A DNA stretch of 64,000 nt from Alphaproteobacteria bacterium (GTDB lineage Bacteria > Pseudomonadota > Alphaproteobacteria > RF32 > CAG-239), in NCBI GenBank assembly GCA_017445475.1, contig JAFSUB010000001.1:14834-78833 (forward strand), written 5' to 3'. The stretch's first letter is position 1. Each line of letters starts with the position of its first letter. The notes beneath the pieces are model-generated. The model worked only from the letters and a program-made list of their open reading frames with translations, was not told where the DNA came from and did no database searches. The position numbers and the translations under genes were made by a program. This document shows positions 31,633 through 58,313 of this stretch, one piece after another.

Positions 31633-33195
31633 TTATCTATGAAGTTCATGATAATAGGTCTTCATTTTGCGGCGCAAATTCACAAAATCTTGCGGCACGG
31701 AATGATAACCTATGGCATAACGATTAGCGTCTGGGTTCCAATAGCCGTAAGCATAAGAGGCATAGCAAACGCGTAGAGCAATTTCAGGTGATGCTGACTT
31801 GGCGGTAAATTTAATGTTCTTTTTGTCATTGCAATAGGGTTCTCTAAAAAACCTCACTTGCTTAATCAGCCCCATTTGCCATAAATGATAAACAGCTAAA
31901 CCTAAGTTTTTATGATCTTGATGCTGATTTTCACCATTGGCAAAATAAATGGAGGCTACCATCGCGTCAGCGCCATATTGCTTTAGATATTGCACAATTA
32001 TTTTTTCGGCAAAATCTGCCTTCAAAGTGCCGTCAACAGCGCGTTGCGGTAAAATATGTATGTTTTCCGGCGCCACACCCAATATCCGGCAGCTTTCGAT
32101 AAACTCGGCATCTCTGGCGCTTATAAACTCTTGCTCGCTTAATTGACAGTGATGGTGGCCGCTGTGCAAAGCACAATCTTGCCCGTCATTTAAGCGTGAT
32201 CTCACGCAAGATTTGGATCCGTCCGTGCACAAAACAACATGCACGTCATTACCCTTTTGGGCTTCAAAGCAAATATCAATTCCCATGCTCAAAAGTTCAT
32301 CGTCTTGGTGCGGCACAAAATATAAAATTGTGTTTGCTTGTGCGGGTTTGGGCCGAGTTGCCCCGTTTCCATCAAAGGAATCAGCAAAAATTTTTTGCCG
32401 GAAGCAGTCTTTGCCGAATTTTGAATCGAACCAATTTCTGATTTTTTCTAAATTTATATCATTGCCGCCGCGCAAGGTATTATCATAAAATAACCCAATC
32501 TGCTGTGAATTTTTGACATATCGCAAACTCTTAAAAGGGCGCGGTTGAACCACCGGCACATGTGATAAAACTTCAACGGTTTTCAGCCACAAATCGTCCG
32601 TATACAAGCTCAGGTTTTTAATCAAATTTTCATCAAAATATTGCAAATCAAGCAGTCTCGGCGGAAACAGCGAACCGGCGCCGTTTGTTGCCAGCAAACG
32701 CATTGATGGAACACCGATAATTTCATTTTGCTCGTAGGTGAAACGAGCATAAGGCGCAAATTTTTCACCTTGAGGATGCATCACATGGCTCCGCATTGCC
32801 GAAACCGCATGTGGAAATTTTTGATAAGATGCCAACAAACATTTGATCATATCACGCGGATAAATTAAATCATCATCAACCGTAATGACAATGCTGTCGC
32901 GATATTTTTGCAAAGCATAAAAGTATTTTTTATGCGGTTTTAAATCTTGACACCATTCAATGCAAATTTTGTTTTTTTTCGCAAGGTTAACCAGATAGGC
33001 AGGCAGGTCGTCTTCTCGACGAGGAAATTCCGATGTTGCAAGCCACAAAACAATCTTATCCGGTTTTTTGTTTTGCTTAAATATCGATTTTAAAACCGGT
33101 TGCAAACGGTTCATCCGCGGCGGATAAGAAGTCATGGAAACAATAATTTCCGGTGTGTGCTTTTTTTGCCGCCAAAGCTCAAAAATACCGAACAT
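31633..33195 (-). CDS. bifunctional-looking glycosyltransferase (DxD) / LmbE(PIG-L)-family deacetylase fusion
   Basis: N-terminal GT-A-like region with VITVDDDLIYP; C-terminal region with ILYFVPHQDDELLSMG and HQDH (zinc-binding HxDD / HxxH of PIG-L/LmbE deacetylases). Confidence 0.6.
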   Translation of the reverse strand: MFGIFELWRQKKHTPEIIVSMTSYPPRMNRLQPVLKSIFKQNKKPDKIVLWLATSEFPRREDDLPAYLVNLAKKNKICIEWCQDLKPHKKYFYALQKYRDSIVITVDDDLIYPRDMIKCLLASYQKFPHAVSAMRSHVMHPQGEKFAPYARFTYEQNEIIGVPSMRLLATNGAGSLFPPRLLDLQYFDENLIKNLSLYTDDLWLKTVEVLSHVPVVQPRPFKSLRYVKNSQQIGLFYDNTLRGGNDINLEKIRNWFDSKFGKDCFRQKIFADSFDGNGATRPKPAQANTILYFVPHQDDELLSMGIDICFEAQKGNDVHVVLCTDGSKSCVRSRLNDGQDCALHSGHHHCQLSEQEFISARDAEFIESCRILGVAPENIHILPQRAVDGTLKADFAEKIIVQYLKQYGADAMVASIYFANGENQHQDHKNLGLAVYHLWQMGLIKQVRFFREPYCNDKKNIKFTAKSASPEIALRVCYASYAYGYWNPDANRYAIGYHSVPQDFVNLRRKMKTYYHELHR

Positions 33196-44172: not shown

Positions 44173-44272
44173 TATTAAAACACTCGCCTTTGAATTGCAA
44201 TAAAAAATTTATGATTTTTTTAAAAATGCCGTTTTTAAAAAGGTCTATACATTTCCTTTTTTTTGTTGTATA

Positions 44273-45754
44273 GTGCCGCTTGTTAAAGCAAAGAAACAAA
44301 AAATGATGAAATATTTGAAAAAATATCCCTTCGAGGTTTTTCTTGTTGTTCATTTTGCGCTGTGGAGCTTTGTGCCCCTTTTGCGCAAAAGTTTGCCGAT
44401 GGACAGCATTGAAGCCGTTTCTTGGGGAATGTATTGCGATTTAGGCACCAATAAACACCCGCCTTTGTCGGGTTGGCTTGCCGATTTTTTTTATAGTGTC
44501 ATAGGTTTTGAAACGCCGTTTTCTATATATGCCTTAAGCCAGTTCTGTGTTGTTTTGGGCTTTATATACGTTTTTCGCCTGTCTTGGCTTTTTGTTTCAA
44601 AAGAAAAAGCCGTTTTGGCGGCAATGCTTTTGGAAGGCGTGATATATTACGGCTTTTCGTCGCTTGAATATAACGTCAATGTGGTTTCGCTTGCTCTGTG
44701 GCCGATGTCGGCTTATTACTTTTATAAAGCCGTTAAAAGCAACAAGACGCTTGATTGGGCTTTAACGGGAGCGTTTGCCGGCTTAAATCTTCTCAACAAA
44801 TACACGAGTTTTGTTTTGCTTTTTTCTATGGCGCTTTATATGCTTTTTGATAAAAAAGCGCGTTCAAGGCTCAAAACTTTGAGGCCTTATCTAGCGGCTA
44901 TTGTTTGTGTGATGATTGTGATGCCCCATCTTTTGTGGCTTTATAAACATGACTTTTTTGTTATGAGCTATTTTATGGGACGAGGCGGTCAGGGCAGTTT
45001 TGAAAATATGCCGCTCTTAAAACACATTGTCTATCCCTTAAAATTTATCGGTGCGCAGATTTTGTTTTCAGCGGGAACGCTTTTGATATATTTTTCTGCG
45101 GTGCGCGGCGAACGCAGAACATCAACGCCGCATGAAAAGAGCGACATCAATTTTTTGATTTATATGGGTGTTTTGCCGGTTTTTTTCATGTTTTGCATCA
45201 GTTTGGTGTTTGGGCTTAAGCTTAAAAGTATGTGGGGTTTTCCGAGCCTTTACCTTTTAGGGCTGATTTTGATGGTTTTCTTTGCTTATCAAACGACAGA
45301 GCGCTTGAAAAAAAAGCTGACAGCCGGTGTATATGTGCTGATGTTTGTGTTTGCATTGGCGCAACTGCTTGTCATATCTCTCAACAAAAGCGACAAGTTT
45401 CAGCTCGAGGTCAAAAAATACGGACAAACGATTGAAGCTCTTTGGGCGCAAAACTCCGATAAACCCTTTGAATATGTGGCAGGCGATGTGTGGTGGGCAA
45501 ACAACGCGGCGCTTTTTGCGCCTTCCAAGCCCAAGCCCGTGATTTGGGGCGATGTGAGGCAAAACCCGTGGTTTGACGCAAAAGACATTGAAGATAAAGG
45601 CGCGCTTGTTTTAAGTTCTGATGAGGCGACATATTTTCAAATGCAACAAAAACTCGGGTTTGAGGGAAAACCGCAGATTTTGCGCATTAAAGTGCAAAAC
45701 AGGTTCAAAAAAACGAAAGAAAAAACGATTTATTACGGGTTTTATAACAACTAA
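44273..45754 (+). CDS. ArnT-like (GT39/GT83) polyprenyl-phosphate-sugar:lipid A glycosyltransferase
   Basis: ~12-TM protein with PMT/ArnT-type N-terminal loop (DSIEAVSWGM...HPPLSGW) and C-terminal periplasmic domain; heads an operon with a GT2 and a YdjC deacetylase. Confidence 0.75.
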   Translation: MPLVKAKKQKMMKYLKKYPFEVFLVVHFALWSFVPLLRKSLPMDSIEAVSWGMYCDLGTNKHPPLSGWLADFFYSVIGFETPFSIYALSQFCVVLGFIYVFRLSWLFVSKEKAVLAAMLLEGVIYYGFSSLEYNVNVVSLALWPMSAYYFYKAVKSNKTLDWALTGAFAGLNLLNKYTSFVLLFSMALYMLFDKKARSRLKTLRPYLAAIVCVMIVMPHLLWLYKHDFFVMSYFMGRGGQGSFENMPLLKHIVYPLKFIGAQILFSAGTLLIYFSAVRGERRTSTPHEKSDINFLIYMGVLPVFFMFCISLVFGLKLKSMWGFPSLYLLGLILMVFFAYQTTERLKKKLTAGVYVLMFVFALAQLLVISLNKSDKFQLEVKKYGQTIEALWAQNSDKPFEYVAGDVWWANNAALFAPSKPKPVIWGDVRQNPWFDAKDIEDKGALVLSSDEATYFQMQQKLGFEGKPQILRIKVQNRFKKTKEKTIYYGFYNN

Positions 45755-45766
45755 AAGGAAAAGAAA

Positions 45767-46726
45767 ATGAAAACGGTCAGCATTGTCATTTCGGCTTATA
45801 ACGAAGAAGGAAACATTGAAAAGCTTTATGAAGAACTCACCAAAGAGCTTGATAAAGCAAGCGATGTTTGTTTTGAAATTTTGTTTGTCAACGATGGCAG
45901 TCAAGACGGAACATACCAAAAAATTCAAGCCTTAATTGAAAAAGATGAGCGCGTTAAAATGGTGAACTTAAAGCGAAACTTCGGCCATGAAATTGCGATG
46001 ACGGCCGGAATGGATTATGCCAAAGGCGATGCGGTGATTTTTATGGACGCAGATTTGCAGCATCCGCCGGTTTATATCCCTGAGATGATTGACGCATGGC
46101 AAAAAGGAAGCCAAATTGTGCTTACAAAGCGTGTTGATAATGTGGCCACCTCATGGTTTTACAAACTTTGCGCCAAAACCTTTTATGTGGCGCTTAATCT
46201 GCTTTCGGAAACAAAAATTGGCGAAAGTATGCCCGATTTCAGATTAATTGACCGCCGATATGTCGATTTTTTGAAAGGCTTTAACGAGCAGGACAGGCTG
46301 TTTCGGGGGTTGCTGAGCTGGATTATGCCTCATGACAATGTGAAAGTGATTGATTTTGTTGCGCCTGAGCGTTTTTCGGGCAAAACAAAATATAATTTTA
46401 TCAAAAGCCTGCAGCTTGCCATCAGCAGCATCACGCAATTTTCGGTTCGACCATTGCGCCTTGCGACATATTTGGGCTTTGCCGGTGCGGCGTGTTCGGT
46501 TTTGTTGGGGCTGTATGTGATTTTTGAGCATTTTATTCAACATAATCCGACGCCCGGATATGCAACCATTGTGTCGGTTGTTGGGTTTGTCGGTGCATTG
46601 CAGCTTATCACGCTCGGTATTGTCGGTGAATATATCGGCAAAATCCACATGGAAGTGAAAAAGCGTCCGCTTTATTTGGCAGATCTGATTGAACAAGAAC
46701 GTAAGGACAACAATCTTGAGCGGTAA
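45767..46726 (+). CDS. GT2 polyprenyl-phosphate hexosamine/sugar synthase (ArnC/DPM1-like)
   Basis: VSIVISAYNEEGNI, DGSQDGT, DADLQHPP motifs; two C-terminal TM helices. Confidence 0.8.
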   Translation: MKTVSIVISAYNEEGNIEKLYEELTKELDKASDVCFEILFVNDGSQDGTYQKIQALIEKDERVKMVNLKRNFGHEIAMTAGMDYAKGDAVIFMDADLQHPPVYIPEMIDAWQKGSQIVLTKRVDNVATSWFYKLCAKTFYVALNLLSETKIGESMPDFRLIDRRYVDFLKGFNEQDRLFRGLLSWIMPHDNVKVIDFVAPERFSGKTKYNFIKSLQLAISSITQFSVRPLRLATYLGFAGAACSVLLGLYVIFEHFIQHNPTPGYATIVSVVGFVGALQLITLGIVGEYIGKIHMEVKKRPLYLADLIEQERKDNNLER

Positions 46727-48017
46727 AATCATTTTCAACGCCGATGATTTCGGAATGACACAAGGTGTGAATGCCGCCATTCAAAAAGCCTATAACGAAG
46801 GCATTTTAAATTCGGCAAGTTTGATGGTGGGGCAAAAATATGCCCTCAAAGCCGTTCAAATGGCAGAGAAAATGCCGCATTTAGAGCTGGGGCTTCATGT
46901 TAATTTAACGAATGAACATCCGATTCTTGATAAAAAAGAACTGCCGCTTCTTGTCGGCAAAGACGGCAAGTTCAAAAACGGTTTCTTAAAGCTGTTGCTC
47001 TTGTCTTTTTTGCGCCCGAAGGCTCTAAAAAAAGAGGTGTGTGCGGAAATTCGGGCGCAAATTGAAAAAGCCCAAAAAATGGGCGTCAAACTCCATCATA
47101 TCGACAGCCATCGTCATGTTCATATGATTCCGCTCATTTTTGAAGTGATGCTTGACTTAAAAGAAAAATACGGCATCGGGCGCATTCGTGTGATAAACGA
47201 ATCAATCGTTCAAACGCTTCGCACCAACAAAAGCAAAAGTTTTTTGTTTGACGGCGGTTTGATTAAATATTTTCTTTTAAGGTTTTTTTGTATCTTAAAC
47301 GGGTTTGAAACAAACACATATTTTTACACAATGCTTTATACGTGCAAACTTTCAAAAGATCATTTTCAAAAGGTTTTGGTGCCCAAAGGCTATGAGGCTG
47401 TGGAGATTATGATTCACCCGTCAATTACAAGCATTGACAAACAAAATATGCAAGATGTGTTTGATAAAAGCGTTCTTTTACCTTGGCGTGAAAAAGAGCT
47501 TGAAACACTTTTGGATAAAAGCATTTTAAAAAACTTTGTTTTCGGTGCTTGTTTCCCGTTTTTGTTTGAGCTTTACTTTAAGGTTGAAAAATGGTGGTTT
47601 AAACACATTTCTGAAAAAATGCGTTTTTTGCTTGTGGGCGGCTTTAATACGGTTTTTGCATATGCTGTTTACGCGCTTTTGCTTGAAATTATCGGTTTGC
47701 CTTATTTGTGGGCGCTTATTGTGCAATATTTTATTTCGGTGAATGTGTCGATTGCAACCATGCGTTATTATGTTTTTCAAAGCAAGGGCAATATGCTTGC
47801 CGAATTTTTAAAAGCGTGGAGTGTTTACATCGGTTTGTTTTTTTTAAATACTGTCGGGCTTGCGTTTTTGGTTGAAGTTTTAAAAATCGGTGCGCTTTTT
47901 GCACAAGGCATATATCTTGTTTTTTCAACAATTATCACATATTTGCTGCACAAATATTTTTCTTTTAAGAAGGCATTAAAGAAAAATAAAGACTCTGCCG
48001 TATATCATAAGAAATAA
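46689..48017 (+). CDS. YdjC-family carbohydrate deacetylase fused to GtrA-like membrane domain
   Basis: N-terminal FNADDFGMTQGVNAAI, HIDSHRHVH (YdjC/ChbG metal site); C-terminal 4-TM GtrA-like segment (RFLLVGGFNTVFAYAVYALL). Confidence 0.65.
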   Translation: MNKNVRTTILSGKIIFNADDFGMTQGVNAAIQKAYNEGILNSASLMVGQKYALKAVQMAEKMPHLELGLHVNLTNEHPILDKKELPLLVGKDGKFKNGFLKLLLLSFLRPKALKKEVCAEIRAQIEKAQKMGVKLHHIDSHRHVHMIPLIFEVMLDLKEKYGIGRIRVINESIVQTLRTNKSKSFLFDGGLIKYFLLRFFCILNGFETNTYFYTMLYTCKLSKDHFQKVLVPKGYEAVEIMIHPSITSIDKQNMQDVFDKSVLLPWREKELETLLDKSILKNFVFGACFPFLFELYFKVEKWWFKHISEKMRFLLVGGFNTVFAYAVYALLLEIIGLPYLWALIVQYFISVNVSIATMRYYVFQSKGNMLAEFLKAWSVYIGLFFLNTVGLAFLVEVLKIGALFAQGIYLVFSTIITYLLHKYFSFKKALKKNKDSAVYHKK

Positions 48018-48037: not shown

Positions 48038-48889
48038 ATGAAAGCAATTACGCCAATCGTCGGTATTTCGAAAATTATCAATGCTTATCAAAGCGTTGTT
48101 TGCGGTTTTGACGGCGTGTTAACAAAAGGCGAAGATTTGTTTGAAGAGGCGCTTGATGCCTTAAGCAAAACGGCAGCTCTTCACAAAGACGTGATTGTGC
48201 TTTCAAATTCTGCCATGAGAACCGAGGAAGTGGCAAAATTGTTTTTGCAGGAAAAATTTGATTTGAAAAATCTGAAAGCCATCATCACGGCCGGAGAAAT
48301 TTTGCATTATAAACTCAAAAACACGCATGCCTTCGGAAAAACATATTACAATCTCGGCGATTGTTCGGATAAAGGCGTGTTTTCAAAAACAAATTATGTG
48401 CGTGTTGATGATTTGGGTGCGGCAGATTTTGTTTTTATCGGTGCTGTTCGAGCTGATAAAAAAACGCTTGAAGACTATATTGAAGAGCTTGAAACGGCGG
48501 CGGCAAGAGGGCTGACGCTCGTTTGTGCGGGCACAGATGTTTCTTCTCATCTTAAAGGTGATGTTTGTTTGAGCGCGGGCGCCGTTGCCGAACACTATGC
48601 GGCAATGGGTGGAAAAATCATCACGGCCGGAAAGCCTGATCAGGCCGTTATATCTTATGTGAATGAAAGTTTTAATTTAAGCGGAAAAAAGGTTTTATGG
48701 ATAGGCGATTCTTTGAGCGCAGATGTCAAATCGGCTGACCTTTTGAAAACTGATTGCGTTTTTGTCTCGCAAGGTATTCATATACACGCGTTGGGTGAAG
48801 GGTTTATTCCGGATGTTCAACGCTTAAGGCTGCTTGCCATGAATTATGAGGTATATCCGAATTATGTTATCTCAAAACTTCGTTGGTAA
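48038..48889 (+). CDS. HAD-superfamily hydrolase (subfamily IIA-like)
   Basis: Motif I CGFDGVL and C-terminal GDSLSADV motif. Confidence 0.55.
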   Translation: MKAITPIVGISKIINAYQSVVCGFDGVLTKGEDLFEEALDALSKTAALHKDVIVLSNSAMRTEEVAKLFLQEKFDLKNLKAIITAGEILHYKLKNTHAFGKTYYNLGDCSDKGVFSKTNYVRVDDLGAADFVFIGAVRADKKTLEDYIEELETAAARGLTLVCAGTDVSSHLKGDVCLSAGAVAEHYAAMGGKIITAGKPDQAVISYVNESFNLSGKKVLWIGDSLSADVKSADLLKTDCVFVSQGIHIHALGEGFIPDVQRLRLLAMNYEVYPNYVISKLRW

Positions 48890-51497: not shown

Positions 51498-52583
51498 ATG
51501 TTTAAGACGCCGTTTTTTAAGAAGAAAAAACCCTTTTTAAAAAAAGATTTGAAACAAGCGCCCAATTATGCGGCGATTGATTTGGGCACAAATTCGTGCC
51601 GTTTGGTGATTGCGACGCCGACACCGACCTCGTTTCACGTTGTTGAAACGTTTTCTAAAATTACACGATTGGGCGAGGGCATCATCAAAGATAACGAACT
51701 TTCCAAAGCGGCCATGCGGCGCACAGTGAACACCTTAAAAGTTTGCAAAAGCGTGATGGACGAATATGCGCCAATTACCCGTTCAAGGTTTGTGGCAACG
51801 GCAGCCTGCCGAAGGGCAAAAAACTGTGCCGAGTTTTTGGCAATGGTTCAAAAAGAGGCGGGCATTAAGCTTGAAATTATTTCGCCGCAGGAAGAAGCAA
51901 GACTTGCCGTTGTCGGGTGTGTGCCGCTTCTAAACCGCAACATTAAGCGTGCGCTTATTTTTGACATCGGCGGCGGTTCAACGGAAATTTCACTTGCGCG
52001 TGTAACCGAAGAAGGCAAAACATTTATTGAAGGGTACGTTTCGCTTCCCTACGGCGTTGTTACAATCTCGGAAGCTTTTCCGAAGCAGGAAATGACCAAT
52101 TTGGCCTATAACACCATTATTGAACGCACACACGGCATTTTGGCGGAGTTTGATGAAAAATACGGTGTGTATGAAGGCATTAAAAATCAAGAAATACAGG
52201 TTATCGGAACATCGGGAACCGTAACGGTTTTGGGCGCGGTTCATTTGGGGCTTGTGCGCTATAACCGTTCGGCGGTTGACGGCCTTTCAATTTCGGGTGC
52301 AGATGTTGAAAACGTGATTAACAAAATTAAAAATATGGGTGATGCCGGCAGGCGTAAACATCGGTGTATCGGTCCGATGAAGGCTGATTTAACCATTTCC
52401 GGTTGTGCCATTATCGAAGCACTGTTGACAATTTTCCCCATCTCGGAAATTACAATTGCAGACCGAGGAATCCGCGAGGGAATTTTGCTTGATATGATTC
52501 ACAATGAAAAGCGTGACAGAAAACATAAAAAGAAAAATTTTAAATCACATCCGCATCACAAAAGGAGAGCAAATGAAGGATAA
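51498..52583 (+). CDS. Ppx/GppA-family phosphatase (paralog 1, actin-like domains only)
   Basis: AIDLGTNSCRLVIA, DIGGGSTE, EALL motifs; no HD domain; basic C-terminal tail. Confidence 0.75.
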   Translation: MFKTPFFKKKKPFLKKDLKQAPNYAAIDLGTNSCRLVIATPTPTSFHVVETFSKITRLGEGIIKDNELSKAAMRRTVNTLKVCKSVMDEYAPITRSRFVATAACRRAKNCAEFLAMVQKEAGIKLEIISPQEEARLAVVGCVPLLNRNIKRALIFDIGGGSTEISLARVTEEGKTFIEGYVSLPYGVVTISEAFPKQEMTNLAYNTIIERTHGILAEFDEKYGVYEGIKNQEIQVIGTSGTVTVLGAVHLGLVRYNRSAVDGLSISGADVENVINKIKNMGDAGRRKHRCIGPMKADLTISGCAIIEALLTIFPISEITIADRGIREGILLDMIHNEKRDRKHKKKNFKSHPHHKRRANEG

Positions 52584-53541
52584 AGTTCTTGCGAGCATTG
52601 ATTTGGGTTCCAATTCTTGTCGCCTCAGAATTGCAACGCTTGAGGGCAATCTCCTTTATAAAGATTCGAAGCCGACCAAATTGGGCGAGGGATTGTTTCA
52701 AACCAAAAAATTGAGTGCGGATTCTATGAACCGTGCACTTGCGGTTTTTCAAGATTTTGCGGAAAAGATGAAGGCACACCATGTTGAAGCCTATCGGGCA
52801 ATTGCAACGGCGGCCTGTCGAATGGCGCAAAACGGGAAGATGTTTGCAAACGAAGTTGAAAAGCAAACAGGTATTAAAATTGAAATTATCGACACAAAAG
52901 AGGAAGCAAGGCTCAACTTAAAAGGTGCTTTGTTCAACGCTCCGAAAGAAAGCGAATATGTTGTGGTTTATGATTTAGGCGGCGCCTCAACCGAAATAAC
53001 GCTTGCAAAAAACAACGCTTCGTGCGAAATTTTGCACACCATCTCAATTCCGCTCGGTGCGCGCAACGCTTCAGAAGGCTATGATTTGCGGGAGTTTCAG
53101 CTTAAAAAAGCTCAAAAGCTTTCAGACGATATTAAAGGTTATGTTCAAGCTTTTATTGAAGATTCACACTTAAAAGATTATCAGGATAAATGTTGCCTGA
53201 TTGCAACCTCAAGCACGCCCTTGCGCCTTTGCTCAATGGTTCATCACGACGGTTTTTATGCGCGCGAAAAAAATGATGGTAAAATCTTAAAAACAACCGA
53301 TGTAGACAAGGCCGTTCAAACCTGCTGTGAAATGAGCCTTGCCGAACGCGCAAATTCGCCGTATGTCGGAAGCGACAGAGCTTCTGTTTTTGTGGCAGCC
53401 TGTGTGATTTTTAAAAGCATTTACGACACGCTCGGTTTTAGAGAGCTGACCGTATCATTCAAGGGGGCGCAATACGCCATGTTAGAGGAGTTAAGAAATG
53501 CCGAAACTGACAAAGTCCGCAAAGCTTGTTCGCGGTCATAA
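52573..53541 (+). CDS. Ppx/GppA-family phosphatase (paralog 2)
   Basis: SIDLGSNSCRLRIA, DLGGASTE; ATG at 52573 with AAAGGAGAG RBS overlaps the end of paralog 1. Confidence 0.75.
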   Translation: MKDKVLASIDLGSNSCRLRIATLEGNLLYKDSKPTKLGEGLFQTKKLSADSMNRALAVFQDFAEKMKAHHVEAYRAIATAACRMAQNGKMFANEVEKQTGIKIEIIDTKEEARLNLKGALFNAPKESEYVVVYDLGGASTEITLAKNNASCEILHTISIPLGARNASEGYDLREFQLKKAQKLSDDIKGYVQAFIEDSHLKDYQDKCCLIATSSTPLRLCSMVHHDGFYAREKNDGKILKTTDVDKAVQTCCEMSLAERANSPYVGSDRASVFVAACVIFKSIYDTLGFRELTVSFKGAQYAMLEELRNAETDKVRKACSRS

Positions 53542-54190
53542 GAGTTTGACGGTTCGCGTTAAAACTTCAAAATATCGAAAACCGTCGTCAAACCGCTGGC
53601 TTGAGCGCCAATTAAACGACCCGTATGTTGCCGAGGCGCAAAAGCAGGGCTATCGTTCACGCGCCGCATTTAAGCTGATTCAGCTTGATGAAAAATACAA
53701 GTTTTTGCAAAAAGGAAAAATCATTGTTGATTTGGGGTGCGCCCCCGGCGGGTGGACTCAGGTTGCGGCTATCAAAAATAAGGGCTCGGGGCAGATTGTT
53801 GGTATTGACATTTTGGAGACCTCGCCAATTGAGGGAGCAACGCTTATATGTGAGGATTTCACATCAAAAGATGCGCCCGAAAAATTAAAATCGCTTTTAG
53901 AAGGTAAGGCAGACGTTGTTTTAAGCGATATGGCGGCCAACACCACCGGACACCAGCAAACCGACCATTTGCGCACGATTGCGCTTGTTGAGGCGGCGTA
54001 TGAATTTGCCAAAGAGGTTTTAAAAGAAGGCGGCATTTTTATTGCCAAAGTTTTTCAAGGCGGAACGGAGGGCGAACTTTTGGCCGATATGAAAAAGAAT
54101 TTTGCAAAAGTGTCGCATTTTAAGCCCGATGCCAGCCGTCAGAGCTCGCCGGAAACATACGTTGTTGCCGAAGGGTTTAAGGGCATATAA
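53498..54190 (+). CDS. rlmE: 23S rRNA (uridine2552-2'-O)-methyltransferase RlmE/FtsJ
   Basis: SRAAFKL, DLGCAPGGW, DMAAN motifs. Confidence 0.9.
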   Translation: MPKLTKSAKLVRGHKSLTVRVKTSKYRKPSSNRWLERQLNDPYVAEAQKQGYRSRAAFKLIQLDEKYKFLQKGKIIVDLGCAPGGWTQVAAIKNKGSGQIVGIDILETSPIEGATLICEDFTSKDAPEKLKSLLEGKADVVLSDMAANTTGHQQTDHLRTIALVEAAYEFAKEVLKEGGIFIAKVFQGGTEGELLADMKKNFAKVSHFKPDASRQSSPETYVVAEGFKGI

Positions 54191-54203
54191 AAACAACGGC
54201 CGC

Positions 54204-54437
54204 TTATTTTTGTTTTAGCTCGTCAACAAGCCTTATTTCGATGGATTTATGGAAATACTTCAAGGCCTCTTCAAACTTTTTCCAGCCGACGCGATCTAAG
54301 CCGAGCTCAATTCTTTCATAGGTGATGGGTTTTATTTTAAGCGCCTTGCAGCAGGCGGCGGTGTATGTGTTGTTTCTTTGGCGCTCTTCAAAAAGAATAC
54401 GGCCGAGCATTTTTTTAATTTGTTTTTGAATCGTCAT
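54204..54437 (-). CDS. small XRE-like HTH protein (cassette copy B)
   Basis: 77 aa, paralog of 37026..37271 (MTIQKQIKKMLGRILFEER...); C-terminus diverges at the junction with the core gene. Confidence 0.6.
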   Translation of the reverse strand: MTIQKQIKKMLGRILFEERQRNNTYTAACCKALKIKPITYERIELGLDRVGWKKFEEALKYFHKSIEIRLVDELKQK

Positions 54438-54469
54438 TGTTTTTAACTCCTGTTTTGTTCATGTTTCTC

Positions 54470-54660
54470 AAAAAAAACCGTTTTGGAAAAAAATCTCAAA
54501 ACGGGGAGCTCAAAAACTGTCCTAATACAGATTTCCTTATTCGCGCAAAGCCTTATTTCGGAAACTCCCCAATGCGGAGTTGAAATTAGGAAGATGTTTT
54601 TGAAACACCGCAATCAACCGATTGCAAGGTTATTATGGAAGATTTTGAAGAAATGTAAAG
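54470..54660 (-). ncRNA. conserved structured leader/sRNA candidate ending in intrinsic terminator (copy B)
   Basis: Same element as 37300..37500: AACTCC-N7-GGAGTT hairpin, GCAATC-AACC-GATTGC hairpin, terminator CCGTTTTGG...CAAAACGG plus U-run just upstream of the XRE start. Confidence 0.35.
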
Positions 54661-54673
54661 AAAAAAAATTGAA

Positions 54674-54711
54674 GATGCCTTGAAGTTTTTGAGCGCGCTC
54701 AAAAAATAGGC
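54674..54711. repeat. dispersed repeat (left flank of cargo B)
   Basis: GATGCCTTGAAGTTTT (16/16 with 57478..57493), palindrome GAGCGCGCTC, then GGCATGACGGGTT; second partial copy GCCATGACGGGTTGTG at 54758..54773. Confidence 0.45.
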
Positions 54712-54806
54712 ATGACGGGTTTTATAGATGTTTTGAATTTTTCGCTTAAGCGAAAAACAGCCATGACGGGTTGTGCTGTTTTTTCTCCATTCCGAACGAA
54801 AACAAA

Positions 54807-56009
54807 TTAAATATTTCTTTCTTTTTTCTGTTCGGTAATATTTATTTGTGATGATACTTGTTTTTGAGAAGTTTTATCGGGAAACGTATAGTTTATCCCA
54901 AGTGGATTGCTGGCCAACAACATACTGTCTGAATTGACGTATCTTGATATGAAAGCATCAATACCTAATCCGAAACTCATAGATTTAGGCAGTCCCCACT
55001 TCATATAAGACATTTCGTTTACATATTCCAAATTATTGTTGTTCTTCTGTTCTTGTAAAGCTTCCTTAACTTTACTATAATCTGTTTCATCACAATAACC
55101 ATGAGCCGTTAATCGACCATTTATATACCATTTAATTTCTGTTTTTAATCCGTTTTCATCAGGTGCGACAAGCGGATTTGAAACCGGCGCGTTAATCAAT
55201 ATTGTATTTTTAAACTCCGGAATTCTTCTTTGATATTGAATGCCTAATTCTGCCAAATTATTATAGTCAACTATATCAGGCGTCCCTTTCTCCGGTGTTT
55301 CAAAACCGTATTTCTTGCACAAAGTACTCATAATTCTACTTACTTTTGTCATGAATCTTAAAAGCTGAGGTTTTGTATAATCTAAAGAAACGAATTCCAA
55401 AGTGCACATTTCCGGAACATGGTTTGCGTCGGAATTTTTGTTGTAAAATACACTCCCGATTGTATAAACGGATTTTAATAAAATCGCGGCTGTTTGTTTA
55501 AGTTGATTTTCCGGAGTAATGCGCAAATAAACAGGCTCTTTATCAAACTGTCCCTTGGTTTGAAACGGAGGTATGGCAGAGCCGGTTCTTTCTCTTTCCA
55601 AGACTTTACAGGGTGTATTTTCAAATCCGTCTTTATCTAAAAGCTCGGAAATTTTCTGTATCAGTTCTTGCTTAAGCCGATAAACATCAATTTGCTTGCC
55701 TGCATTGCGGGCATTGCTTTGGGCATAGCGCTCACAGCCTTTAGAATTATTCGGTAAATTTTTAAACTCGTCCCATGTTTGACACGGACTTACCCACAAA
55801 ATTCTCTCAATTTTTAATACATTTTCTCCACTTTGGTTTTTTATGAATTTTCCGGTAGCGGCAAAACAATCTCCTTTTTTTAAAGCTTTCTTGTGATATA
55901 GATTTTTATCAAAAACAATTTGTTCCTTTTTACCATCACTTGTATATGTTTCGGCAAAAATCACGGATTTATGCTTCCTTACATTCAATATTCGAAAGAT
56001 TTTTTTCAT
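54807..56009 (-). CDS. class II (LysRS/AsnRS-subclass IIb-like) aminoacyl-tRNA synthetase paralog with N-terminal OB fold; motif 2/3 arginines apparently substituted
   Basis: Aligns to LysRS blocks: FENTPCKVLERERTGSAIPPF, VFYNKNSDANHVPEMCTLEF versus FRNEGISVRHNPEFTMMEL (R to Y, E to K), SFGLGIDAF versus GLGIGIDR (R to A); AT-rich relative to neighbours. Confidence 0.6.
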   Translation of the reverse strand: MKKIFRILNVRKHKSVIFAETYTSDGKKEQIVFDKNLYHKKALKKGDCFAATGKFIKNQSGENVLKIERILWVSPCQTWDEFKNLPNNSKGCERYAQSNARNAGKQIDVYRLKQELIQKISELLDKDGFENTPCKVLERERTGSAIPPFQTKGQFDKEPVYLRITPENQLKQTAAILLKSVYTIGSVFYNKNSDANHVPEMCTLEFVSLDYTKPQLLRFMTKVSRIMSTLCKKYGFETPEKGTPDIVDYNNLAELGIQYQRRIPEFKNTILINAPVSNPLVAPDENGLKTEIKWYINGRLTAHGYCDETDYSKVKEALQEQKNNNNLEYVNEMSYMKWGLPKSMSFGLGIDAFISRYVNSDSMLLASNPLGINYTFPDKTSQKQVSSQINITEQKKERNI

Positions 56010-56023
56010 GATTTTTTACCTTT

Positions 56024-56731
56024 TTAGGGAATTTGTTTAACCTTACGGTCATCTCTGCAAGTCATGATTTTTATCGAACCATCTTGAAAAACCAGTGCAG
56101 TGCAATCATCCATACTCCATCCTTGTATGTTTTTTTGTTTCAGTTTGTCATTTATCCTTTGTTTCTCATCTTCAGTCAGCCAGTCGTAATGTGGGACACC
56201 AAATCCTTTAATAAATCCCAAACCTCTAACCAAATCGAGTTGCTCAATATTTTCTATATCATCCATATTATCGTAATATTCAAACCAGCAAATGGCGCCT
56301 GCAGAGATACCGGCTAAAACAATTCCCTTTTGGTAGGCTTCGTATAAGATATCGCCAAGTTTATATTTTTGCCAAATGTTCAGCATGGTTGTTGTATCTC
56401 CGCCACCGACATAAATAATATCACTTGAAAATATTTTGTTTCTAATTTCTTGTATGGAAATTGATTCCTCTACCAAATTTAAAGGTTCAACGGAATGGCA
56501 CCCCAAACGTCCCTTAAAATGATTCTCTACAACTTCCAGATAACTTTTTTTATCACCTGAAGCCGTGCCGACAAAAAGCATTTTAGGATGCTTTTTTCCC
56601 GTTGCATCAACAATAAAACGATCAATCAGAGTTGTTTCCACGTCTGTTTGCACAGAAGTACCGTCCGGCAAAACCTTTATTCTTCCTATTTCCCCTCCAC
56701 CGACAGCTATAATCATTTTTTTCATTTTCAT
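56024..56731 (-). CDS. S51-family peptidase (peptidase E / cyanophycinase-like)
   Basis: IYVGGGDTTTML, nucleophile block LAGISAGAICW, His in VPHYDW; 15-bp gap to the aaRS-like gene. Confidence 0.7.
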   Translation of the reverse strand: MKMKKMIIAVGGGEIGRIKVLPDGTSVQTDVETTLIDRFIVDATGKKHPKMLFVGTASGDKKSYLEVVENHFKGRLGCHSVEPLNLVEESISIQEIRNKIFSSDIIYVGGGDTTTMLNIWQKYKLGDILYEAYQKGIVLAGISAGAICWFEYYDNMDDIENIEQLDLVRGLGFIKGFGVPHYDWLTEDEKQRINDKLKQKNIQGWSMDDCTALVFQDGSIKIMTCRDDRKVKQIP

Positions 56732-56749
56732 TGCCTTTAATTATTGTTT

Positions 56750-57343
56750 TTACCTGTTTTTTGTTTTTCGATAATTGTATAAATCTTCAAAAATTTTTGT
56801 ATTTTGTCTTTCACGCTTTTTTAAATATTCTTTCACTTGTTCAGCCCGCTCTGCAACAGAGCCTGCCACCAAATTATATTTTATTTTATGATGATTCATA
56901 AATTCTATTATTTGTTCATGTAAAATATCTTTGGTTCCCTCATCTCCACGCATCATACTGGTATCAAATGCAATATGCGGATCACACACAAAAACAACAT
57001 CTTGTGTTTTGTAAAATTCTAACGCTCTTTCTTTGAGCTCGGGAAATTCTCTGCCAAACGAATATTTATTTCCCAAATAAAAGATTAACGGTCCGCTGTC
57101 GATAAATAAATATTTTTGTGCTTTTTTTTCCAAAATTTCGATGTCATAATTTTGCAAATCGGCTGCCTCAATAAAAACATCGTTCGTAATTTGTGCAATG
57201 CCTATGCCACGTTTGGTCATAACATCACGCATACGTTCTGGAGCGTGAGGCTCACCATACATGTCGGCACAATAGCGACACAGAGTAGATTTACCCGTGC
57301 TTGACGCTCCTGAAAAATTAATTTTTAAGATTTTATTACTCAT
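56750..57343 (-). CDS. P-loop NTPase / small-molecule-kinase-like protein (NadR-kinase/AAA_28-like)
   Basis: Walker A INFSGASSTGKSTL near N-terminus, Walker-B-like LFIDSG; 197 aa; 18-bp gap to the peptidase gene. Confidence 0.55.
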   Translation of the reverse strand: MSNKILKINFSGASSTGKSTLCRYCADMYGEPHAPERMRDVMTKRGIGIAQITNDVFIEAADLQNYDIEILEKKAQKYLFIDSGPLIFYLGNKYSFGREFPELKERALEFYKTQDVVFVCDPHIAFDTSMMRGDEGTKDILHEQIIEFMNHHKIKYNLVAGSVAERAEQVKEYLKKRERQNTKIFEDLYNYRKTKNR

Positions 57344-57461
57344 TTTTTGTTTGTCCGTAACATTGCCGTAATGATATCCTAAACAAATATTTTTGTCAAC
57401 ATATATTTACAAATCGATTAAATAATTATGGAATAATTTCTTAGATTTTGGTTTGTTATAT

Positions 57462-57493
57462 TGGCATGACGAGTGGTGGATGCCTTGAAGTTT
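57462..57493. repeat. dispersed repeat (right flank of cargo B)
   Basis: GGCATGACGAGTGG followed by GATGCCTTGAAGTTTT, matching the left-flank elements in rearranged order. Confidence 0.45.
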
Positions 57494-57569
57494 TCAAATA
57501 ATGCTTGATATTTGCTTTAAAATGTATCATATTTGCTCACAAATCAGTGATGAATTGGAAAAAAGGAAA

Positions 57570-58313
57570 ATGGAAAAAAAAGAAAAGAAAAAGGAAAGTG
57601 TGTGGGATACCCTTAAAACAATTGTATACGCCATTTTAATTGCGCTTTTAATCAGAAGTTTGTTTTTTGAGCCGTTTCGCATTCCCTCGGGTTCGATGTA
57701 TCCAACATTGGAAGTCGGCGATTATCTGTTTGTTTCAAAATATACTTACGGTTATTCCAAACACTCGTTTCCGTTCAGTTTGGCGCCGATTAAGGGGCGG
57801 ATTTTTGCAAAAAAGCCTAAGCGCGGGGATATTGTCGTTTTTAAATATCCCAAAGACAACCGCACGGATTTTATCAAACGCATCATCGGACTTGAAGGCG
57901 ATACAATCCAAATGAGCCGCGGAAGGCTTTATATCAACGGCGAGCTTGTTGATCGCGAGCCGGTCGGAAAATATGTTTTAAGCGAATATGTTGTGCGTCC
58001 CGAGCAGTATGAAGAATATGTCGAAACACTGCCGGAAGGCTTGAAACACCGTATTTTGGAAATTTCAGATTATGAAAGCAAGGTTGATAATATGTCCAAA
58101 ATCGTTGTTCCGGAAGGCCATTATTTTGTGATGGGCGACAACCGCGACCGCTCGGACGACAGCCGTGTGCATGTCGGCTTTGTGCCCGAAGAAAATTTGG
58201 TGGGCAAGGCGCGGTTTTTGTTTTTTTCACACAACGACAAAGCAAAATGGTATAAACCGTGGACATGGCCGAAAGCCATACGATATTCAAAAATTTTCAG
58301 CACCCTTGAATAG
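57570..58313 (+). CDS. lepB: signal peptidase I
   Basis: Catalytic Ser block IPSGSMYPTL, GDNRDRSDDSR box E; ATG at 57570 with AAGGA RBS. Confidence 0.9.
   Translation: MEKKEKKKESVWDTLKTIVYAILIALLIRSLFFEPFRIPSGSMYPTLEVGDYLFVSKYTYGYSKHSFPFSLAPIKGRIFAKKPKRGDIVVFKYPKDNRTDFIKRIIGLEGDTIQMSRGRLYINGELVDREPVGKYVLSEYVVRPEQYEEYVETLPEGLKHRILEISDYESKVDNMSKIVVPEGHYFVMGDNRDRSDDSRVHVGFVPEENLVGKARFLFFSHNDKAKWYKPWTWPKAIRYSKIFSTLE

Follow-up and report, generated by a model that had tools for sequence, protein, structure and literature searches.

A 64,000-nucleotide stretch of the genome of an alphaproteobacterium of the RF32/CAG-239 lineage (GenBank assembly GCA_017445475.1, contig JAFSUB010000001.1, positions 14,834 to 78,833 of the forward strand; hereafter the window) carries a cassette of three co-oriented, abutting open reading frames (ORFs) on the plus strand, at 44273-45754, 45767-46726, and 46689-48017. 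They encode four functional modules: a glycosyltransferase of the GT-C class (ORF1), a family 2 glycosyltransferase (GT2; ORF2), and a YdjC-type deacetylase domain fused to a GtrA-type membrane domain (ORF3). The cassette is probably a chromosomal, vertically inherited route by which the cell envelope is decorated with a free-amine hexosamine (HexN) delivered on a polyprenyl-phosphate carrier. Catalytic motifs are intact in every module. A preliminary description of the locus, made from the sequence alone, had listed this three-gene set and its domains, and Pfam searches confirmed both. ORF1 matched PMT_2 (PF13231, E 9e-35) and no other family, ORF2 matched Glycos_transf_2 (PF00535, E 9e-32), and ORF3 matched YdjC at aa 13-279 (PF04794, E 3e-58) and GtrA_DPMS_TM at aa 312-426 (PF04138, E 5e-16).

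The GT2 is a polyprenyl-phosphate glycosyltransferase. In searches of the PDB, it matched the GtrB structure 5EKP at E 4e-71 and ArnC structures at E 1e-35; it is 31% identical to Escherichia coli ArnC and lies much nearer the polyprenyl-phosphate glucosyltransferase GtrB. The top NCBIfam match was PgfS, at 270 bits and under the cut-off for that model. The protein contains a DADLQHPP motif, and DADxQHPP is the signature quoted for the GT2 polyprenyl-phosphate glycosyltransferase class (PMC12992685). Two C-terminal transmembrane (TM) helices are predicted from hydrophobic stretches spanning aa 235-253 and aa 268-286, with the catalytic domain in the cytoplasm. The sugar loaded by this enzyme is presumably an N-acetylhexosamine (HexNAc).

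The YdjC domain retains the motifs NADDFG, GLHvnLT, and hIDSHrHVH, as in ChbG and EF3048, and its metal-binding and catalytic Asp/His motifs align with the structures 2I5I, 7VI8, and 8JQE and with the enzymes ChbG, EF3048, and CmCBDA. Its fold matched ChbG at E 7e-13. The best curated family in NCBIfam was HpnK, a deacetylase of lipid-linked N-acetylglucosamine (GlcNAc), which scored 178.9 bits, short of its 232.6-bit cut-off. With these motifs kept and the GT2 placed among polyprenyl-phosphate glycosyltransferases, the pathway logic of the preliminary description, in which a sugar is loaded onto a lipid carrier and then de-N-acetylated, fits the cassette.

Some further observations concern YdjC proteins. 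A conserved hydrophobic stretch, FDGGLIKYFLLRFFCILNGF, lies within the YdjC domain at window positions 47241-47297 (aa 176-194 of the fusion protein), outside the region that can be aligned to the soluble ChbG and EF3048. The stretch recurs in the stand-alone YdjC protein of a comparator locus, L084 (described below), and is a candidate helix that dips into the membrane and so gives access to a lipid-linked substrate. YdjC domains were found in other architectures as well, namely YdjC-formyltransferase and methyltransferase-YdjC fusions (P0326, P0340, and P0372), and at locus L082 (7001-9598) a ydjC gene is followed by genes for a FemAB-like acyltransferase and a formyltransferase. These arrangements suggest aminosugar editing pathways that deacetylate and then re-acylate. 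The window also holds a second, unrelated candidate sugar deacetylase, a 520-aa ORF at 31636-33195 on the minus strand. A PIG-L domain (GlcNAc-PI de-N-acetylase family) spans aa 291-437 of this protein, and the N-terminal ~290 aa had no Pfam or NCBIfam match.

An AlphaFold2 model of the fusion protein (pLDDT 87.9, pTM 0.82) places the GtrA helices at aa 300-326, 330-354, 360-388, and 393-415. The tail past the last hydrophobic segment contains nine K/R and one D/E residues, and because of this charge distribution the bundle fits an N-in/C-in topology with a cytoplasmic YdjC domain. Within the GtrA domain the motifs LVGGFNTV, TMRYYVF, and HKYFSF are invariant, as are the polar residues N311, Q337, N343, R350, Q397, and H412 in the TM helices. 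Residues Y287, E291, W294, and F295 at the junction are likewise invariant throughout the fused family. Mean column identity in this family is 70%, with both halves and the junction strongly constrained.

Distribution of the fusion was analyzed by scanning genomes, one for each species, which returned 243 relatives; the counts below refer to the best 80 of these 243, all from metagenome-assembled genomes of uncultured gut and rumen Alphaproteobacteria. The four modules were located in each of the 80 loci by tblastn. YdjC and GtrA were encoded by a single ORF in 28 loci and by two ORFs in 51, and in the remaining locus the region was cut at a contig end. The fusion noted in the preliminary description is thus real, with the same single ORF and a conserved junction in 28 loci, and the fused ORF was also present in ~80 protein clusters. 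A frameshift or assembly artifact was rejected as its source, given that the same ORF is conserved in 28 genomes. Gene order (GT-C, GT2, YdjC, GtrA) was kept in all 80 loci wherever the contig was long enough, and the cassette genes overlapped or were separated by tiny gaps. In the 51 split loci, a stand-alone gtrA of ~157 aa directly follows ydjC, with 4-8 nt shared between the end of ydjC and the beginning of gtrA. In six of these loci, both frames are continuous save for one TAA, TAG, or TGA codon. Split YdjC proteins end in …LLDKNVAEGIN and a stop, and split GtrA proteins start with MIKPFIKLYLWAENIWF…LRFLLVGGFNTV. The apparent linker of the fused protein is therefore the amphipathic N-terminal helix of a once stand-alone GtrA.

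A neighbor-joining tree of concatenated GT2 and YdjC sequences, with L084 as its root, contained 26 fused taxa; these formed one clade that held no split taxon and was nested among split taxa. This indicates a single derived fusion event, in which two neighboring genes, already translationally coupled, were joined end to end through ~8 bridging residues; repeated independent fusions inside the clade were ruled out by the monophyly of the fused taxa. A homolog of the HAD-IIA hydrolase gene that follows the cassette was directly downstream in every fused-clade locus and in none of the split-clade loci. When 1.84 billion representative proteins were searched with a profile, 15,660 relatives were retrieved; the best 150 of these comprised one full-length fusion cluster (P0078, a 50%-identity cluster), one fragment, and otherwise stand-alone YdjC or GtrA proteins with a few YdjC fusions to formyltransferases or methyltransferases. 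By these comparisons the fusion appears to be clade restricted and evolutionarily shallow. The preliminary description had taken the arrangement to be undescribed; it appears instead to be a clade-restricted join of genes that are adjacent in sister lineages, and the architecture is already labelled by database pipelines (in a JGI name). The fusion fixes a 1:1 stoichiometry of deacetylase and GtrA. That these two were joined argues that they cooperate physically and were already partners when encoded separately.

Two side observations arose from this survey. In the lineage of P0078 (L090/L091, 9126-12190), the fused gene and the HAD gene are in place, and a 162-aa ORF and a gap lie where the GT-C and GT2 genes would be expected; the fusion protein of this lineage may serve other partners, its partner genes may be located elsewhere, or the pathway may be decaying. 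Five loci (L019, L041, L043, L048, and L054) occur in records titled Lachnospiraceae, Eubacteriales, Bacteroidaceae, or [Ruminococcus] gnavus, and these records are probably mis-binned contigs or mislabelled bins.

The modeled structure of the GT-C (pLDDT 93.7) points to a GT-C_A enzyme with an ArnT-like overall architecture. It has the features of that class, including the multi-TM fold, a catalytic acidic residue (Asp/Glu, invariant) in the first loop on the periplasmic side, a Lys/Pro phosphate-binding motif (KHPP), and a periplasmic C-terminal domain, and many of its residues are invariant. Foldseek ranked Cupriavidus metallidurans ArnT at the top (TM-score 0.62), well above OST/PglB (TM-score 0.45-0.49). 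The acceptor cannot be read from the fold alone.

The preliminary description had gone further and assigned this protein to the ArnT family, and here sequence comparisons did not bear it out. Among the Pfam families it had named for the cassette, PF04138, PF04794, and PF13231 were matched, and PF02366 gave no match to the GT-C even at E<=1. PF13231 is presumably the Pfam family that bears in InterPro the name of the rhizobial RgtA-D enzymes, transferases of galacturonic acid (GalA) to core and lipid A, and it presumably includes the Rgt GT-Cs. No NCBIfam model matched the GT-C, the ArnT equivalog NF009784 included, and searches of PDB sequences returned nothing, either with the single sequence (phmmer) or with a 33-sequence profile. 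Alignment to E. coli ArnT by hhalign gave a probability of ~1%. As a positive control, E. coli ArnT retrieved C. metallidurans ArnT (5EZM) at E 2e-31 and scored 211 bits with PF02366. By sequence, the GT-C thus does not appear to be a member of the ArnT family; LgmB and FlmK were compared by their published descriptions. The result that the preliminary description had named as refuting its reading, a GT-C that groups with protein O-mannosyltransferases (PMTs) or O-antigen enzymes and not with the ArnT/LgmB clade, was borne out only in its second half: the GT-C lies outside the ArnT clade.

Close homologs of the GT-C, like those of the fusion protein, all came from metagenomes of uncultured gut or rumen Alphaproteobacteria. 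In PLSDB (tblastn), its nearest relatives were mostly rhizobial genes labelled GT39, and the GT39 genes matched in Proteus, Pantoea, and Pandoraea were orphans, unaccompanied by GT2 or YdjC genes. The Proteus mirabilis matches include two 4-Mb records labelled as plasmids but evidently chromosomal (NZ_OL790812.1, locus L085, and NZ_OL790811.1); each holds such an orphan PMT_2-type GT-C gene, whose product is 22% identical to the window GT-C.

Two comparator cassettes place the GT-C in a broader setting. The locus L084 (2984-7188), which belongs to another lineage and was reached through a distant YdjC relative, encodes a PMT/PMT_2 GT-C, a GT2, an LPG_synthase_TM protein, and a YdjC protein. 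Its GT2 and YdjC are 51% and 40% identical, respectively, to those of the window. Its GT-C is an ArnT-clade protein, which matched E. coli ArnT at E 3e-27 and 5EZM at E 3e-26 and scored 142 bits with NF009784 and 71 bits with PF02366, whereas the window GT-C matched neither model and showed no similarity to the L084 GT-C by hhalign (probability ~1%). The position of GtrA is occupied in L084 by the unrelated LPG_synthase_TM protein, which has an MprF-like, "flippase-like" domain. Since an unrelated protein of this kind fills the same slot, the comparison supports a translocation role over anchoring for GtrA. The other comparator is a cultured betaproteobacterium, Variovorax paradoxus VAI-C (L092; CP063167.1, 400914-404618), which encodes a full-length homolog of the window GT-C (E 3e-25). 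PMT_2 is the one family that this homolog matches, and neither ArnT nor the L084 GT-C is similar to it; its gene divergently adjoins GT2, YdjC, and SnoaL-like genes, with no GtrA annotated. V. paradoxus VAI-C is a possible experimental model. Taken at the level of sequence families, GT2 and YdjC appear to form a module that produces HexN on undecaprenyl phosphate (Und-P) and that is combined with at least two unrelated GT-C subfamilies. The same module is paired with differing fourth components, either GtrA, an LPG_synthase_TM protein, or none annotated, and thus with two or more unrelated candidate flippases.

The model best supported by our analysis would be a Gtr-like three-component system of periplasmic glycosylation (PMC11127046) into which deacetylation at the lipid level, as described for NaxD (PMC11279074) and at the lgm locus (PMC4993483), has been inserted. 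On the cytoplasmic face, the GT2 would move a sugar, presumably HexNAc, from a UDP-sugar to a carrier that is likely Und-P. The cytoplasmic YdjC domain would strip the N-acetyl group to give Und-P-HexN, as suggested by homology to NaxD/LgmC-type enzymes and by the intact active site. The GtrA domain would then take Und-P-HexN from the deacetylase to which it is tethered, so that the hand-over would run from YdjC to GtrA, and would translocate it, or hold it for translocation, to the periplasmic leaflet. Finally, the GT-C would pass HexN to an acceptor that faces the periplasm. This acceptor is more probably a conserved one than an O-antigen that varies between strains, because inheritance is vertical across a broad clade, GC content is host-like, and viral relatives are absent. 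Lipopolysaccharide (LPS) should be available, since relatives encode LpxA-like, KdsB-like, and Mla proteins, and LPS, at lipid A or the inner core taken jointly, is a rather likely acceptor. Because the GT-C is not an ArnT by sequence and the lead of ArnT in the fold comparison is narrow, lipid A phosphate specifically is a possible acceptor that we hold to be somewhat less likely than not. Addition of HexN would lower the negative charge of the surface.

Several points weigh against the proposed route. The acceptor is a predicted step in an uncultured host. GtrB and PgfS, the best-scoring relatives of the GT2, are not known to be HexNAc transferases. The GT-C falls outside the ArnT sequence clade in Pfam, NCBIfam, PDB, and hhalign comparisons alike, and its fold resembles Pmt4, ALG12, and AglB nearly as closely as it does the top-ranked ArnT. 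Flippase activity has not been directly demonstrated for any GtrA protein (PMC11127046), and such a role for Rv3789 has been challenged, according to work cited in PMC12992685. Lastly, the P0078 lineage keeps the fused gene without adjacent GT-C and GT2 genes.

The cassette could also be an orthologous system to LgmABC or FlmF2-NaxD-FlmK, in which an ArnT/LgmB-type GT-C places glucosamine (GlcN) or galactosamine (GalN) on the 1- and/or 4'-phosphates of lipid A and confers resistance to cationic peptides. We regard this as possible but doubtful. The parts list is identical, the GT2 and YdjC are near those of the ArnT-clade cassette L084, the cassette is conserved and chromosomal in LPS-making bacteria, and cationic peptides abound in the gut and rumen. 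The GT-C is the difficulty, as its sequence is not detectably similar to that of ArnT or of the L084 GT-C and goes unscored by the NCBIfam ArnT model that detects the latter; moreover, free phosphates are missing from the lipid A of many Alphaproteobacteria, to which Rgt enzymes attach GalA (PMC7663294), so that a phosphate acceptor is not a given. A Gtr-like side-branch reaction, in which HexN goes not to lipid A phosphate but to O-antigen, capsule, another periplasmic glycan, or LPS core sugars in an Rgt-like manner, seems unlikely. GtrA together with a GT2 this close to GtrB is the signature of the Gtr three-component systems (PMC11127046). The match of the GT-C to PF13231 alone and its mostly rhizobial GT39 neighbors in PLSDB point the same way. 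Clusters of gtr genes that modify O-antigen are typically phage borne and strain variable, whereas viral contigs lacked this cassette, its GC content is host-like, and no polysaccharide genes were found among the scanned neighbors adjoining it; clade-wide synteny and the many invariant GT-C residues fit a conserved acceptor. A phage-borne, gtr-like seroconversion module was rejected on the absence of viral relatives and the housekeeping context.

As for the GtrA domain, a role as a membrane anchor or substrate-presenting scaffold, with translocation occurring by other means or spontaneously, is possible but less likely than not. The doubts noted above over GtrA flippase activity and Rv3789 (PMC11127046; cited in PMC12992685) speak for it, as do the dispensability of lgmD, the fourth Bordetella gene (PMC4993483), the Variovorax cassette with no annotated GtrA, and the conserved hydrophobic helix that the YdjC domain has of its own. 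It sits less well with the "flippase-like" protein in the equivalent slot of L084, which suggests that the slot is defined by function, with the invariance of the six polar residues in the TM helices, and with the dolichol-phosphate-mannose synthase (DPMS), whose GtrA-like TM domain, fused to an enzyme, has been seen holding the flipped product Dol-P-Man (PMC12992685). HpnI/HpnK-type modification of hopanoids or of other lipid head groups, or PMT-like protein O-glycosylation, is highly improbable. HpnK is the top NCBIfam match of the YdjC domain, but its score falls below the cut-off, the GT2 had no match to the HpnI model in NCBIfam, and the window ORFs scanned included no hpnJ, hpnH, or shc-type gene. 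The hpn pathway, furthermore, needs no GT-C. We rejected the hopanoid HpnIK pathway on these sub-cut-off scores, the lack of hpn neighbors, and the presence of a GT-C; for protein O-glycosylation with deacetylated HexN from a polyprenyl monophosphate donor, we know of no precedent.

If the cassette is the envelope-modifying route proposed here, abundant uncultured gut and rumen Alphaproteobacteria have a constitutive, chromosomally encoded cationic modification of their envelope, which would affect tolerance of antimicrobial peptides and polymyxin and the innate immune (TLR4) recognition of commensal LPS. The fused and split versions form a natural pair of constructs for testing translocation of polyprenyl-phosphate sugars by GtrA proteins, a question that also concerns Gtr, GtcA, and Rv3789. 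The interest of the cassette lies mainly in this handle on GtrA function and in its marking a probable second, non-ArnT family of aminosugar transferases. More speculatively, and in our judgment improbably, the cassette could represent a second, non-ArnT class of aminosugar transferase, in which a PMT_2-only GT-C puts a cationic hexosamine on a non-classical LPS site (inner core/Kdo or dephosphorylated lipid A) and the YdjC-GtrA fusion is "Rosetta-stone" evidence that GtrA docks on the enzyme that makes its cargo and acts as a dedicated Und-P-aminosugar translocator. The cassette would then be a tractable single-polypeptide model of the long-unproven flippase function of GtrA.

Annotated gene starts were revised by homolog lengths, 44273 being the start of ORF1 as called mechanically (Table 1). 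GT-C homologs are 482-488 aa long (483 aa for P0121, which is 94% identical), and the promoter-like site upstream ends at 44274, which would put the transcript start downstream of GTG 44273; for these reasons ATG 44303 is likely the GT-C start. Homologs of the fusion protein are 420-433 aa long, and because P0001 (97% identical) and P0002 (89% identical) are both 433 aa, TTG 46716 is the most likely start of the fusion gene. From this codon to the end of the GT2 stop codon (46724-46726), the two genes overlap by 11 nt.

Table 1. Coordinates of the cassette and of adjoining features in the window
Feature	Position	Strand	Basis
Promoter-like site (TATACA-17-TATAGT) within the 100-nt interval that follows the divergent aspS	44246..44274	+	9/12 consensus scan, weak evidence
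GT-C glycosyltransferase, PMT_2-only subfamily, 483 aa, predicted periplasmic, polyprenyl-phosphate-sugar donor	44303..45754	+	PF13231, fold model
GtrB/ArnC-type GT2, 319 aa, predicted polyprenyl-phosphate N-acetylhexosamine synthase	45767..46726	+	PF00535, PDB matches
YdjC (ChbG/HpnK/NaxD-type) deacetylase domain, aa 1-275 of 433-aa fusion, predicted cytoplasmic	46716..47540	+	PF04794, motifs, fold
Fusion junction, aa 276-300, ~8 bridging residues plus amphipathic helix (…LYFKVEKWWF…)	47541..47615	+	Comparison with split relatives
GtrA-family domain of four TM helices (aa ~301-417) with a Lys-rich tail, predicted cytoplasmic; candidate module for translocating or handling the polyprenyl-P-sugar	47616..48017	+	PF04138
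HAD-IIA hydrolase gene, co-oriented, 20 nt downstream of the fusion gene, possible operon member	48038..48889	+	PF13344, PF13242

The cassette is flanked by the divergent aspS upstream and the co-oriented HAD-IIA gene downstream, whose product scored 98 bits with TIGR01459, slightly below the cut-off. Its GC content of 0.40 is near that of most of the window, which is otherwise ordinary core chromosome, with a dcw cluster, ftsH, pnp, yidC, engB, a ccrM-like methylase gene, ppx, ftsJ, lepB, rnc, and era. Tandem paralogs of the Ppx/GppA family (51498-52583 and 52504-53541, plus strand; ORF overlap 80 nt) are conserved downstream of the cassette in relatives. The region at ~54000-58000 has a GC content of 0.36-0.37, compared with ~0.42 elsewhere, and carries on the minus strand genes for a 400-aa class II aminoacyl-tRNA synthetase-like paralog (PF00152, E 2e-11), a Peptidase_S51 protein, and an AAA_28 ATPase. 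The syntenic relatives L089 and L090 have RsmB-LpxA-GT2-GT4 genes after ftsJ instead, and the region looks like an insertion or rearrangement. An 876-aa ORF at 60238-62865 on the minus strand had no Pfam match at E<=1e-5.

Among known systems, Bordetella LgmABCD and Francisella FlmF2/NaxD/FlmK share components with the cassette. The model of Shah et al. (2013) for Bordetella reportedly runs from Und-P-GlcNAc to Und-P-GlcN, followed by flipping and transfer. LgmABCD (BP0399-BP0396), which places GlcN on lipid A phosphates, is like the cassette an operon that encodes a GT2, a GT-C, a deacetylase of the YdjC type, and one further membrane protein; addition of GlcN to lipid A depends on lgmA-C, and lgmD is dispensable (PMC4993483). 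LgmB, however, is called an ArnT orthologue (PMC4993483, ref. 27; PMC11895810), whereas the window GT-C has no detectable ArnT sequence similarity, and the fourth module in the window is of the GtrA type and is fused to the deacetylase. In Francisella, a GT2 forms Und-P-GalNAc, a lipid-level YdjC deacetylase (NaxD) converts Und-P-GalNAc, and a GT-C places GalN on the lipid A 1-phosphate (PMC2233673, PMC11279074); this system differs in having no described dedicated flippase and no fusion, and FlmK was found as a PmrK (ArnT) homolog (PMC2233673). The equivalence with Lgm and Flm that the preliminary description had drawn thus holds for the GT2 and YdjC steps, both of which the cassette has, and fails for an ArnT (PmrK)-like GT-C by sequence.

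The enterobacterial Arn pathway, as annotated, follows a similar sequence of events, with a sugar that is N-acylated on loading onto Und-P, de-N-acylated at the lipid level by the deformylase ArnD, flipped by ArnE/F, and transferred by the GT-C ArnT. ArnD does not have the YdjC fold, however, the flippase belongs to another family, and, as shown above, the GT2 is a distant relative of ArnC and the GT-C is unrelated to ArnT by sequence. The rhizobial RgtE and RgtA-D/RgtF proteins are, like the cassette, alphaproteobacterial, and they use a GT2 that makes a bactoprenyl-phosphate sugar and GT-Cs acting on lipid A and core (PMC7663294); they differ in transferring anionic GalA and not cationic HexN, with no deacetylase and no GtrA. 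The fusion protein is reminiscent of the type III DPMS of Pyrococcus furiosus, in which a cytoplasmic polyprenyl-phosphate-sugar enzyme lies N-terminal to a PF04138 4-TM domain proposed to flip its product; there the fused enzyme is a GT2 synthase and not a deacetylase, and GtrA proteins reportedly lack the polar-pocket motifs of DPMS (PMC12992685).

Finally, the GtrA-GtrB-GtrC systems of Shigella and Salmonella combine a GtrB-type GT2, a GtrA 4-TM protein, and a periplasmic GT-C, a general route of periplasmic glycosylation in which GtrA is the proposed flippase (PMC11127046). The cassette has the same clustered components, a GtrB-like GT2, a GtrA 4-TM domain, and a GT-C. It shows none of the mobility of gtr clusters: no relatives were found among 2.9 million viral contigs, its context is housekeeping, and synteny is clade-wide. 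Gtr systems transfer an unedited sugar and are usually prophage borne and serotype specific, whereas the cassette adds a deacetylation step and is chromosomal and vertically inherited.

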